Origin: Promethearchaeota archaeon
GTDB taxonomy: Archaea > Asgardarchaeota > Lokiarchaeia > Sigyniarchaeales > SOKP01
Length of the DNA stretch: 31,647 bases
NCBI GenBank assembly: GCA_048941285.1
Contig: JBHLNS010000038.1
Location: forward strand, 1-31,647
Direction of reading: 5' to 3'
Position numbers and translations under genes: made by a program. The notes below the pieces were generated by a model. That model searched no databases, was not told the DNA's origin, and saw only the letters and a program-made list of their open reading frames with translations. This document shows positions 184 to 3,036 of the stretch, in pieces. Position 1 is the first letter of the stretch, and each line of letters opens with the position of its first letter.

Positions 184-210
184 TTGATATCTTTTAATTC
201 AAAACCTGTG

Positions 211-263
211 CAAAGGTTGGTCAACTTGTTACTAAGATTTCTTAACAAGCTTCATTCCATTCG
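211..263 (-). promoter_or_regulatory. Candidate eukaryote-type SECIS element (kink-turn hairpin)
   Basis: The minus strand reads CGAA-UGG-AAU-GA-A-GCUUGUUA-AG-AAAU-CU-UAG-UAACAAGU-U-GA-CCA-ACC-UUUG. It has an AUGA...GA core, an 8-bp upper helix, apical AAA 11 nt after AUGA and a lower helix UGG/CCA plus CGAA/UUUG. It lies just 3' of a UGA-containing ORF. Confidence 0.7.
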
Positions 264-267
264 AATC

Positions 268-501
268 TTATATTAAAATAACAGAGAATAAACAATCTTG
301 TTTGAGAACAAATTTGATAATATTGTCTAACCAAGAAGAAATTACCAAACATCCTCATCCATCTCCACCAATAATTCCACTATTATGTAAAATCAGTATA
401 ACAGCAGTAATTATTGCTGCTAAACCAACTACACTGAATATAATAATTAGTATTTTCTTGGTATCTATTCTCTTTACTTGTTCTGATGCAAATTCACTCA
501 T
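268..501 (-). CDS. Small single-TM membrane protein; candidate selenoprotein (77 aa with Sec at codon 49, or 48 aa if TGA at 355-357 is a stop)
   Basis: ATG at 501: MSEFASEQVKRIDTKKILIIIFSVVGLAAIITAVILILHNSGIIGGDG-[TGA]-GCLVISSWLDNIIKFVLKQDCLFSVILI-TAA(268-270). A clear TM helix follows a KK pair, and a SECIS-like hairpin lies downstream. Confidence 0.65.
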
Positions 502-590: not shown

Positions 591-1628
591 CTATGAACTT
601 TTACCTTCTTTATACTTGAAAACAGTGTATAAACCAATAATGAGCGTAAAAGCTGCGAAAAATATCCATAATATTTGAACTTGTTTTATTATCATTTCTA
701 AGATTATCGGAGGGGGGAGTATACTAATTACTTCTTGCCAAATCTTCATAAATTGAGCAACCAATTTTATAAGGATTAAAAATAGTGCTATTGTATCAGC
801 TTTAAATATCTTAAGTTTCTCCTTTATATAGTCAATTCTATCATAGATTGATCCTATAATATATACAAATAATAGTAAATCAATGAGAAATGAAAAAATA
901 TCATATGGACCGCTGTTAATAAAGAGAAATTCTGCTAAGAGATCCACAACAAGATAAACAACATAAAAGTAAGTTAACAAATTAAATAAAGAAATATAAG
1001 CAGCCAATTTCTTAGTAAATATTAATCTAATTAGAGTAATTACTACTATTGTAATTCCAATTAGAAAAAGGATAAAGAAGGATCTTGCTATATTTGTTCC
1101 TCCTAAAATCAGGGCATTATTAAAAAACCTCATCGTTAAAGAAATAAGCCACCATGTAAGAAAGAAAAATAAAGCAAGTTCGAGAATTCGTGTAAATATT
1201 CTAGAACGTTTCTTGCTATACAAGTAATCATCAACTTTTATCGATGTATCCATACATACTTTATAAGCAAAAAAAGCAATTAGAATAGAATCAGCAAGGG
1301 CAAAAAAAATGAATATGTAAACTAAAATCCATATATATACATACATTACAATCAATATGAAAATCAAGAAAATAGGTATTGCTAAAATTATGGCAATGAT
1401 TATTAATAGTTTGCCCATTTCATCAATCTGTTTGAAAAATGAGATTATTAATAGTACAAACATAAATGCTGTTAATGCACCAATAATGAATAAAAAATAA
1501 ATCTTAAATTCTGAACTTCCATAAATATCAAATATAATGAAGAGAAACCAAGAAATAACAAATATAACTACGATAGTTAATAATAGAGTCTTTTTTATTA
1601 GATTTTTTAGCCCAGAAATAAATCTCAT
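591..1628 (-). CDS. Multi-pass membrane protein of unknown function
   Basis: 345-aa ORF with about 9-10 hydrophobic segments; no family motif recognised. Confidence 0.8.
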   Translation of the reverse strand: MRFISGLKNLIKKTLLLTIVVIFVISWFLFIIFDIYGSSEFKIYFLFIIGALTAFMFVLLIISFFKQIDEMGKLLIIIAIILAIPIFLIFILIVMYVYIWILVYIFIFFALADSILIAFFAYKVCMDTSIKVDDYLYSKKRSRIFTRILELALFFFLTWWLISLTMRFFNNALILGGTNIARSFFILFLIGITIVVITLIRLIFTKKLAAYISLFNLLTYFYVVYLVVDLLAEFLFINSGPYDIFSFLIDLLLFVYIIGSIYDRIDYIKEKLKIFKADTIALFLILIKLVAQFMKIWQEVISILPPPIILEMIIKQVQILWIFFAAFTLIIGLYTVFKYKEGKSS

Positions 1629-1830: not shown

Positions 1831-3036
1831 ATGTCTGAAGAACAAAAAGTTAGAAATCGTTGGGTTGTTGTTATTGGAGCTATCATGATCCAATTAGCAT
1901 TAGGTACAATTTATTCATGGGGTACGCTTACTCAATTTGTAAGTCCTTATGTTTCTGAAATAGAGGAAGTAACTGTTTATGTGTTTGGTGTAGGTTTATT
2001 ATCATTTGCTGTAACAATGATTTTTGCAGGAAAATTGCAACAAAAATATGGACCACGAAATATTGCTATTTTAGGGGGAATTTTAATGGGTGGAGGTGTC
2101 ATTTTGTCTGCTCTTATGACAACATTTATAGGATTATTGATTACGTATGGAATAATCTTTGGTATGGGAATCGGTTTTGGATATGTCTGCCCGATTGCTG
2201 CAGCAAGCAAATGGTTTCCAGATAAAAAAGGCTTTATTAATGGAATTGCTGTTGCGGGTTTCGGTGCGGGTTCTTTTGTGTTTAACTATGTAATACAAGG
2301 ACTTTCTTTTAATATTCCATTAATGTTTATTATCCTGGGTATAATATACTTAGTATTAATTATTGGAGGAGCTATGACATTAAGTAATCCTCCTGAAGGT
2401 TGGAAACCTGAAGGTTGGGAACCTCCAGCACCTTCTGAAAAAAGTGGGATTTCTGGACTTGAATTTGAACGAAAACAAACAATAAAACTACCTCAATTTT
2501 GGATGCTTTGGGCTACTTTCATTTTAAGTGCAATATCTGGTTTGATGGTAATAGGATCATATTCTAGGTTCATTGAATCATTCTTAATAGTAGATTTTGT
2601 ATTAATAGGAAGTTTAGCAGCTTTATTCAACGGTCTAGGTAGAATTGCGTGGGGAAAGTTAGCGGATTTAATATCATACAAAAAAGCAATGTATTTAATG
2701 TTTTCAATCCAGGCAATACTATTGTTTCTTTACTTTACAACAAATGTAAATGGAATATACTTCTTGATAATGACCTGCGCAATATATTTCTGTTTCGGAG
2801 GGAATTTTAGCTTGTTCCCTACTGCTACAGCAGATTTATTTGGAACTAAAAACTTAGGACCTAATTATGGAATAGTATTCACTGCTTATGGAATTGCTGG
2901 ATTTATGGGTGCTACAATGGTAAATACTTTTGTTATATTATTCGGAGGATATTTAACCTTGTTTATAGTTATGGGGATTATGTCCTTAGGGGCAGCTATA
3001 CTAGCTTATTTATTAAAACCTCCCACTCGAAAATAA
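1831..3036 (+). CDS. MFS transporter, oxalate/formate antiporter (OFA, OxlT/YhjX-like) family
   Basis: Motifs RWVVVIGA..QLALGTIYSW, KWFPDKKGFINGIAVAGFGAG, FNGLGRIAWGKLAD and FGTKNLGPNYG; about 12 TM segments. Confidence 0.92.
   Translation: MSEEQKVRNRWVVVIGAIMIQLALGTIYSWGTLTQFVSPYVSEIEEVTVYVFGVGLLSFAVTMIFAGKLQQKYGPRNIAILGGILMGGGVILSALMTTFIGLLITYGIIFGMGIGFGYVCPIAAASKWFPDKKGFINGIAVAGFGAGSFVFNYVIQGLSFNIPLMFIILGIIYLVLIIGGAMTLSNPPEGWKPEGWEPPAPSEKSGISGLEFERKQTIKLPQFWMLWATFILSAISGLMVIGSYSRFIESFLIVDFVLIGSLAALFNGLGRIAWGKLADLISYKKAMYLMFSIQAILLFLYFTTNVNGIYFLIMTCAIYFCFGGNFSLFPTATADLFGTKNLGPNYGIVFTAYGIAGFMGATMVNTFVILFGGYLTLFIVMGIMSLGAAILAYLLKPPTRK

Follow-up and report, generated by a model that had tools for sequence, protein, structure and literature searches.

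A candidate family of small membrane-anchored selenoproteins with a eukaryote-like 3'UTR SECIS in Lokiarchaeia

Introduction

Seven selenoprotein families, namely SelD, FrhA/VhuU, HdrA, FrhD/VhuD, Prx-like, AhpF-N-like and DsbA-like, are listed for Asgard archaea by Huang et al. 2024, whose survey covered more than 400 Asgard genomes and relied on homology to families already known (PMC11227280), and a 2026 review restates this list (PMC13188914). Earlier, Mariotti et al. 2016 had carried out a search based on the selenocysteine insertion sequence (SECIS) in the first Loki assembly and a metagenome, reporting only HdrA, VhuD, VhuU and PrxL, and had described the Loki-type element (lokiSECIS) as an AUGA followed by a 9-bp stem, an 11-nt loop with an A-rich start and an AG end, and then GA (PMC4989117). 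Among these proteins, VhuU is a selenopeptide subunit of about 50 residues, belonging to the archaeal F420-non-reducing hydrogenase, that works only in a larger complex (PMC4989117). Here we analyze a stretch of 31,647 nucleotides (the window; positions 1 to 31,647 of contig JBHLNS010000038.1, assembly GCA_048941285.1) from a member of the Promethearchaeota, which is the current name of the Lokiarchaeota. In this window, a minus-strand frame at 268-501 would encode a small, membrane-anchored protein containing selenocysteine (Sec, U), and is followed in its 3' untranslated region (3'UTR) by a eukaryote-like SECIS.

A first-pass annotation of the window had proposed such a gene, unannotated, with a U-G-C motif and its own eukaryote-like 3'UTR SECIS, and had added that the product might be SelK/SelS-like. 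The proposal of the gene itself is supported here by the conservation of the TGA, of the frame and of the SECIS, and by the Sec machinery of the host genome. We consider it highly probable that 268-501 is a real gene for a 77-residue selenoprotein of a new family, as in the overall explanation set out below. No description of this family was found in the full-text literature, supplementary tables, which could list candidates, being left unread.

Results

Translation of the minus strand from the ATG at 501-499 gives 48 codons up to a TGA at 357-355, after which the frame stays open for 28 further codons until the TAA at 270-268, reproducing in full the frame given by the first-pass annotation. 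Read through, the coding sequence (268-501, minus strand), as defined by translation and by the alignment of full-length homologues, comprises 77 codons plus the TAA, with Sec as codon 49. The product consists of MSEFASEQVKRIDTKK, a hydrophobic stretch of about 22 residues, HNSGIIGGDG-U-GC, and then LVISSWLDNIIKFVLKQDCLFSVILI. Taken alone, the locus is unconvincing, since at least 26 stop-free codons follow 11% of all TGA triplets in the host genome, the fold energy of the hairpin behind the frame is ordinary, and no Rfam SECIS model matched in the window at the gathering score, nor at E ≤ 10 in bases 1-700. Nor did Rfam offer any other credible family for the hairpin. The negative Rfam result is to be expected for a Loki SECIS, the same having been reported for all Loki SECIS (PMC4989117). 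The minimum free energy of the hairpin, being unexceptional, was left out as evidence.

A complete Loki-type SECIS (197-266, minus strand) was delimited in the 3'UTR by a covariance-model match at 215-263 and by covariation. The elements named by the first-pass annotation, comprising the UGG/CCA stem, the AAU bulge, the AUGA, the GA and the helix, are all present and begin 5 nt past the stop codon, while three of its details required correction. The main helix (helix II, 251-243 with 231-223) has 9 pairs, not 8, and the apical loop that it carries is the 11-nt AGAAAUCUUAG (242-232) rather than a plain AAA, helix and loop together occupying 223-251 of the minus strand. The conserved structure is also longer than the 211-263 assigned to it, extending from 266 to 197 and starting 2 nt past the stop codon; its additional parts are a closing helix, formed by 266-260 and 203-197, and a small side hairpin, in which 217-215 pair with 206-204. 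The UGG/CCA stem pairs 259-257 with 220-218. The AUGA (255-252, minus strand), which forms the 5' half of kink-turn-like tandem G.A pairs, and the GA that forms the 3' half of the core (222-221, minus strand) are both invariant in the 19-sequence alignment presented below, and the sequence (UGG/CCA, AAU, GA/GA) fits a kink-turn. The core lies 102 nt downstream of the UGA. The window hairpin agrees with the published lokiSECIS on the AUGA, the 9-bp stem, the 11-nt loop with its A-rich start and AG end, the GA and the location right after the stop (PMC4989117). For frhA genes, Huang et al. report a lower stem of the form [U/C]GG_C[C/U][A/G], with which the UGG/CCA found here is consistent (PMC11227280).

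The closing helix (consensus CCGAA…UUCGG) and the side hairpin (ACC…GGU) were found to be common to the SECIS of PrxL, HdrA-VhuD, VhuD, HdrA and the new family. The side hairpin sits between the GA and the closing helix, giving a three-way junction that goes beyond the published core; no mention of "junction" or "lower stem" was found in the accessible text of PMC4989117.

A pattern scan of the host genome for a 9-bp stem with an 11-nt loop found this arrangement behind Prx-like, HdrA-VhuD, VhuD and HdrA-like genes and behind the window frame. A covariance model, R1, was then trained only on four SECIS of the same genome (PrxL, HdrA-VhuD, VhuD and HdrA), using the ungapped 49-nt core, to which it was restricted because MAFFT misaligned these four elements in their extended form. 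Over the 3.55 Mb of the genome, R1 gave seven matches at E ≤ 1, consisting of the four training elements (56-64 bits) and three others: an element on contig C36 (40.4 bits), the window hairpin at 215-263 (38.6 bits, E = 9.2e-5), and a weak match on contig C92. A model built from lokiarchaeal SECIS, as suggested in the first-pass annotation, thus recognizes the hairpin. The C92 match, which has neither an A-rich loop nor an upstream Sec frame, was set aside as chance. On these comparative grounds, we take the window hairpin to be a genuine Loki-type SECIS.

In a scan of one genome per prokaryotic species, the SECIS pattern was found in at least 106 stretches. Among the matches listed (80), all records are titled as an Asgard metagenome-assembled genome or as "uncultured archaeon", most titles naming Promethearchaeota and some Hod-, Hermod-, Odin- or Thorarchaeota; the upstream frames that could be extracted among these listed matches include further members of the new family.

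To follow the gene across relatives, the read-through protein was used as the query in a six-frame search of 61 related genomes. This single protein matched 14 congeneric genomes at E ≤ 2.2e-4, and every one of these matches contains one in-frame TGA and no more. The TGA read as Sec (U49; 355-357, minus strand) falls in one aligned column in 19/19 extracted homologues, and a profile of these 19 sequences retrieved a TGA-containing match in 44 of the 54 genomes of the genus. A wider profile search, made on a draw of 400 genomes of the phylum, gave matches in three sister genera (20/42 genomes of g28, 3/7 of g29 and 2/10 of g27) and in a second family of the class (f6, 2/3 genomes). Twenty matches outside the genus were opened, of which 13 show G-rich-U-x-C followed by a SECIS, two have TAA, one is spurious, and four are Cys-rich without a TGA. 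In an alignment of 38 sequences, from which four loci were left out and which does not contain the two TAA relatives, no column is free of variation apart from Met1 and that of Sec, with TGA in 38/38. A search of a general genome-contig collection with the single protein found no relative.

The frame past the TGA is also maintained. The tail after the UGA runs for 26-33 codons in 17/19 loci, the other two frames closing at medians of about 3 and about 18 codons; among the 38 members it reaches at least 26 codons in 25, and is exactly 33 codons long in 12 despite divergent sequences. A simple core search located a SECIS core after the frame in 37/38 members. The UGA-to-AUGA distance is 37-125 nt (102-118 nt in most members), and in 33 of the 37 members with a core the final stop lies 4-23 nt ahead of it. 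Summed over eight related pairs, the changes at codon positions 1, 2 and 3 of the tail number 52, 22 and 66, with the second position changing least.

For the SECIS itself, R1 matched directly 3' of the frame in 19/19 loci, with E < 1e-4 at 16 and weaker scores of 16.9-20.9 bits at the remaining three. In a MAFFT alignment of the 19 elements, 87.5% of cells are paired, and sliding the partners by 1-3 columns lowers this share to 30-51%. Double-sided changes occur in 14 of the 21 SECIS pairs, and the observed score was reached by 0 of 500 shuffles. Resolved by helix, covariation is seen in 4/6 pairs of the closing helix, 6/9 pairs of helix II (89.5% of cells paired) and 3/3 pairs of the 3-bp stem of the putative kink-turn (78.9% of cells paired). 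The apical loop is 11 nt long in 32 of the 37 cores found, and the 3' core dinucleotide is GA in 36 and AA in one. Conservation thus extends to the TGA, to the open frame past it and to the hairpin, features that the first-pass annotation had proposed to check.

Some members have a further TGA in frame. In two g28 genomes (loci L068 and L076) the extended frame ends at a second in-frame TGA, which is the UGA within the AUGA of the SECIS core itself, and at L038 and L075 the terminating TGA lies 1-5 codons ahead of the core. The member at L048 (genome G065), GGGG-U-P-C-U, has its second in-frame TGA three codons past the first and may be a two-Sec form.

These comparisons bear on the simplest alternative, in which the UGA is a plain stop that closes a 48-residue membrane micro-protein and the hairpin is a terminator, a stability element or a small RNA. 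Public gene calls do end there, with 32 of 43 database matches being 39-62 residues long, two relatives end at the Sec codon with TAA, the tail evolves fast, and the fold energy of the hairpin is unremarkable. However, a model trained on other selenoprotein genes scores the hairpin as one of only three extra matches in the genome, and the stop of the extended frame keeps within 4-23 nt of the SECIS core in 33/37 members. Moreover, the tails run far beyond the 11% background in 25/38 members, and the codon is TGA in all 38 aligned sequences although TAA is the commonest stop, TAA being found in the two unaligned relatives. We regard a plain stop as very improbable.

The representation of the family in public protein sets was examined by an exhaustive profile search over 1.84 billion representative proteins, which returned 43 matches. 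The 32 matches of 39-62 residues fit truncation at the TGA; the six that were inspected all end just before it, and the named short matches are labelled "hypothetical protein". Nine of the 11 longer matches were inspected. Trp occupies the Sec position in seven of them; the other two are a repeat protein and a weak Cys-containing candidate (P0056, E = 2.7e-4). The presence of W at the Sec codon suggests that these genes were called on short contigs with TGA decoded as Trp. Full-length versions of the family occur in public sets only with Trp at Sec (P0002-P0008, P0011, P0025, P0031, P0047 and P0061). The exchange of TGA with TGY for which the first-pass annotation had proposed to look did not emerge, as no clear Cys homologue was found among the 23 matches of a word-indexed protein search or the 43 profile matches.

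Four proteins from the Asgard families f13 and f18 (L071, L072, L080 and L081) have the same K/R-rich start and transmembrane (TM) helix, without a TGA, and carry repeated C-x-x-x-C motifs (…CANACGTACSNSC…). The profile matches only their helix (E = 2e-7 to 2e-4), and these Cys-rich single-pass proteins could be analogues or very distant Cys relatives.

The host assembly (3.55 Mb in 101 contigs, 29.7% G+C, with the window as contig C65) contains the Sec machinery whose presence the first-pass annotation had proposed to confirm. A tRNA-Sec gene (59.4 bits) adjoins SepSecS (472.6 bits), and an EF-Sec-like gene (239.7 bits) lies on the same contig, 4 kb from tRNA-Sec; this gene and a PSTK-like gene (153.9 bits) score below the cut-offs of their curated models. 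Two tandem SelD genes (G000:C39:20517-22862) score above the cut-off, each with an in-frame TGA. TGA closes 181 of 1454 long frames in this genome, in which TAA is the commonest stop, and is thus an ordinary stop codon that has not been reassigned. SepSecS was found in 53/54 genomes of the genus. Within the genus, the co-occurrence of the family and tRNA-Sec is uninformative, with tRNA-Sec detected in 26/44 carriers versus 5/10 non-carriers. The new family would use a known recoding system.

In both SelD copies, Sec lies in the context …G-U-x-CK…, and the SECIS is type-II-like (AUGA, 5-bp stem, AAAA bulge and ministem). A further 3' hairpin follows each SelD, its stem differing on both sides between the copies.

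The layout of the protein was assessed from hydropathy, charge and a structural model. In the window protein, the best 19-residue hydropathy window covers residues 17-35 with a mean of 3.05, compared with a best value of 1.23 in the tail; across members, the corresponding values are 2.5-3.5 for the anchor and about -0.3 to 2.0 for the tail. A single TM helix at about residues 17-38 (388-453, minus strand), preceded by a K/R-rich segment, is indicated by hydropathy, by an AlphaFold2 model and by K+R counts, which over the 38 members total 151 in the 10 residues before the helix versus 3 between the helix and Sec. By the positive-inside rule, this bias predicts a cytoplasmic N-terminus, with Sec outside. 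The AlphaFold2 model, based on the 38-row alignment, has a helix at 8-40, a loop at 41-50 and a second helix at 51-76, and would place Sec just where that second helix begins. Motif counts over the 38 members defined the Gly-rich linker with its U-G-C motif (IIGGDG-U-G-C; 349-372, minus strand); in these members, the linker between helix and Sec measures 8-25 residues. The C-terminal tail that follows U-G-C (271-348, minus strand; 26 residues, LVISSW...SVILI) is moderately hydrophobic and predicted to be helical.

No Pfam family was assigned to the small protein, for which 19 members searched at E ≤ 10 gave only sub-threshold matches to unrelated membrane families, and a profile search against PDB sequences returned nothing relevant. 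Three sub-threshold Pfam matches to MauE cover the TM helix only and were discarded as noise.

SelK and SelS end in GG-U-G and expose Sec to the cytosol. The suggestion that the new gene is a distant, ancestor-like homologue of these eukaryotic proteins draws on its small product with one N-terminal TM helix, on the Gly-rich Sec context (GGGG-U-G), on one member that ends two residues past Sec (GGGGGUSG-stop), and on a host lineage that is the closest archaeal relative of eukaryotes and has a eukaryote-like SECIS. However, Pfam SelK and SelS matched 0/19 members even at E ≤ 10, the PDB-sequence profile search offered no support, and the K/R bias predicts an extracellular Sec, opposite to the cytosolic Sec of SelK/SelS. 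Sec is located 8-25 residues past the helix instead of at the end of a long disordered region, and is followed by 7-33 residues in 37/38 members and by two in the remaining one. The member with only two residues past Sec keeps the usual UGA-SECIS spacing, at 108 nt, as would be left by a recent nonsense mutation in the tail. In addition, the accessible text of Huang et al. reports no eukaryote-specific selenoprotein family in Asgard archaea (PMC11227280). We find descent shared with SelK/SelS highly unlikely, and do not retain this part of the first-pass annotation.

The same region was considered as a cleaved signal or leader, whose removal would yield a mature released or lipid-linked peptide of 25-35 residues beginning at about Sec. 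In our reading, the basic N-region, the hydrophobic core, and the small Gly-rich residues and U/C are loosely signal-peptide-like. Nevertheless, the hydrophobic core of about 19-23 residues is more anchor-like than a signal-peptide core, no lipobox-like consensus precedes Sec in the 38-sequence alignment, the tail shrinks to 2-10 residues in part of the family, and the conserved neighbourhood showed no processing enzyme. We accordingly give cleavage very little credence, and treat the helix as a retained anchor.

Regarding the Sec motif, a Cys is found exactly one residue from Sec, on either side, in 33/38 members, with U-x-C in 27 and C-x-U in six that form one clade; two further members have U-(x2-3)-C. 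The swap in order with the spacing kept points to Sec and Cys acting as a pair, and away from a fixed recognition sequence. By analogy with the C-G-C and G-C-U-G arms of oxidoreductases, such a pair would function as a tethered redox shuttle.

Directly upstream of the small gene and on the same strand lies a gene (591-1628, minus strand) whose product, a polytopic membrane protein of 345 residues, belongs to no known family. A homologue of 331-345 residues occupies this position in 21/30 family loci, with a mean column identity of 66%. No Pfam match was obtained for it, and its look-alikes in the Atlas are only Promethearchaeota hypothetical proteins. Co-folding of the neighbour with the 48-residue truncated product, in a run for which controls were not folded, gave a score of 0.00 and no verdict on an interaction. 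From the conserved arrangement, we infer that the small selenoprotein probably works with this membrane protein.

The neighbour also figures in the main rival of the redox shuttle, in which the same Sec gene would use U-x-C as a ligand site for soft metals or metalloids (Hg, Cu(I), As or Se species), with cargo exchanged with the upstream polytopic protein acting as a permease. Cys-Ser-Cys, occasionally Sec-Ser-Cys, is found in Cu/Zn-efflux-type permeases, and Sec occurs at substrate-contacting positions of transporter subunits (10.1101/2022.07.06.499078). The neighbour is a conserved multi-helix membrane protein, as this explanation would have it, and the Cys one residue from Sec in 33/38 members fits as well, this spacing being predicted by both readings. 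On the other hand, the neighbour matches no transporter family in Pfam or the Atlas, and no metal-resistance genes were seen in the clustered flanks. We hold a metal-binding role to be rather unlikely.

Divergent from the pair of membrane-protein and selenoprotein genes is an MFS_1 transporter gene at 1831-3036 (plus strand; E = 4.7e-38). Other family loci also have MFS-like genes nearby, whose orientation varies.

Two further frames with in-frame TGA were noted in the same genome. The first, C36:38441-38656 (plus strand), is a second small candidate selenoprotein gene, unrelated to the window gene, which encodes 71 residues with two hydrophobic helices and one in-frame TGA (…FSIIA-U-GHIL…), and is followed by the lokiSECIS on C36 that R1 scored above (E = 3.4e-5); TGA-containing homologues were found in only 2 other genomes of the 61 searched, a set that includes the host genome itself, as three and two tandem copies. 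The second, a 158-codon frame on C24 (L032:210-686, minus strand) to which no family was assigned, has two adjacent in-frame TGA (…VVHAD-UU-ADVMRERL…). It ends 8 nt before a 9-bp/11-nt AUGA…AA hairpin that the pattern scan picked up but that is not among the R1 matches at E ≤ 1.

Discussion

We propose a model in which UGA codon 49 would be recoded to Sec, as judged by comparison with relatives, by the Loki-type, eukaryote-like SECIS at 266-197, the recoding being carried out by the archaeal/eukaryal-type Sec machinery of the genome. The predicted product has a short K/R-rich cytoplasmic N-terminus, one TM helix and a Gly-rich linker, with Sec expected on the outer side of the membrane, where a second helix of lower hydrophobicity begins. 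There, Sec would be paired with the Cys one residue off, as U-G-C in most members and as C-G-U in one clade, and the two may form a reversible selenylsulfide on a flexible Gly-rich arm. Tethered to the membrane and facing outside the cell, such an arm could act as a redox shuttle or provide a ligand site for soft metals or metalloids.

A number of observations weigh against this model. The tail is weakly constrained, with 71 nonsynonymous versus 35 synonymous codon differences over the eight related pairs, and is shortened to 2-20 residues in 12/38 members, indicating that it is not essential everywhere. Two of the short-tailed members (tails of 2 and 16) retain the usual UGA-SECIS spacing, which looks like the result of a recent nonsense mutation in the tail. 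Because of the weak constraint and of these very short tails, Sec and its immediate context are, as far as the alignment goes, the conserved core of the family, and the tail is accessory. Homologues ending in TAA or TAG, which the first-pass annotation had named as evidence to the contrary, make up only a minority, comprising two genomes with TAA. These two nearly identical genomes of genus g28 (G241 and G243) read …GGGGGGGTIFG-stop-C… at the site (L062 and L063) and are without the SECIS, and G241 retains a tRNA-Sec of 62.1 bits, showing that a Sec-less truncated form can persist beside tRNA-Sec. From the sequences, the TAA in both looks like a secondary loss of the Sec part, with the Sec trait kept.

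The Rfam tRNA-Sec model detected this gene in only 31/54 genomes of the genus. Five family-positive genomes without a match had all, or nearly all, of their first-look candidates rescored, and none reached the cut-off; either the gene is often unassembled, or it is divergent in part of the genus. The hairpin, taken alone, has an unremarkable fold energy (z = -0.41). The lack of a clear Cys homologue is unusual for selenoprotein families, and with it the classic criterion of a Sec/Cys pair between homologues is lost. At the level of the protein, the AlphaFold2 model has a mean predicted local distance difference test (pLDDT) score of 68.6, a modest confidence, three of the 38 members have no nearby Cys, and the sole nearly invariant Cys of the neighbour is placed by our own reading of its hydropathy, as opposed to a computed topology, on the cytoplasmic side, unlike the predicted side of Sec.

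Searches of Asgard genomes that start from the SECIS still reveal new genes; public annotations cut the present protein short at the UGA or read the codon as Trp. Known archaeal selenoproteins are few, and almost all are soluble redox enzymes of hydrogen and energy metabolism, whereas the new one is membrane-anchored and probably extracytoplasmic. The family very probably adds to this short list, seemingly without sulphur-only relatives. With 77 codons and a SECIS 102 nt off, it is also a compact natural test case for eukaryote-like SECIS in archaea. More tentatively, Asgard archaea may possess lineage-specific, Sec-only mini-proteins with a selenol at the outer face, and the new family could be the catalytic or ligand arm of a new membrane redox or metal system formed with its neighbour; the two-helix candidate on C36 would be a second such protein. 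We hold this possibility to be less likely than not. If it is true, archaeal selenoproteomes would be systematically under-counted, since surveys have leaned mainly on homology with families already known.

Compared with known systems, the new family shares its recoding signal with the known Loki selenoproteins PrxL, VhuU and HdrA-VhuD. It falls outside all seven listed Asgard families, being membrane-anchored, with no known domain and no clear Cys homologue. VhuU resembles the new family in its archaeal origin, its very small size and its single Sec. It differs in being soluble and in bearing the C-terminal motif with which the hydrogenase large subunit ligates Ni, whereas the new family has a TM helix, a Gly-rich linker and U-x-C, and its neighbour is a membrane protein, not a hydrogenase. 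Small size, one N-terminal TM helix and a Gly-flanked Sec are features shared with SelK/SelS; in the new family, by contrast, Sec is next to the membrane, the predicted orientation is opposite, and there is no long disordered region.

For the Sec/Cys motif, the nearest parallels are found in oxidoreductases and in a permease. The C-G-C tail of Erv2 and the Gly-Cys-Sec-Gly of thioredoxin reductase each hold a close chalcogen pair, set in a flexible segment that contains Gly, which can form a small-ring (seleno)disulfide and shuttle electrons. The new family likewise has U-G-C or C-G-U after a Gly run; those arms, however, are tails of large flavoenzymes, whereas the new protein is free-standing, membrane-tethered and predicted to face outward. 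The Sec-Ser-Cys of SO_0444-type metal efflux permeases also presents U-x-C in a membrane protein, and is read there as a soft-metal site (10.1101/2022.07.06.499078). In that case the motif belongs to a bacterial permease with several membrane passes, of which Cys versions exist, while the new family is single-pass, archaeal and without a clear Cys version.

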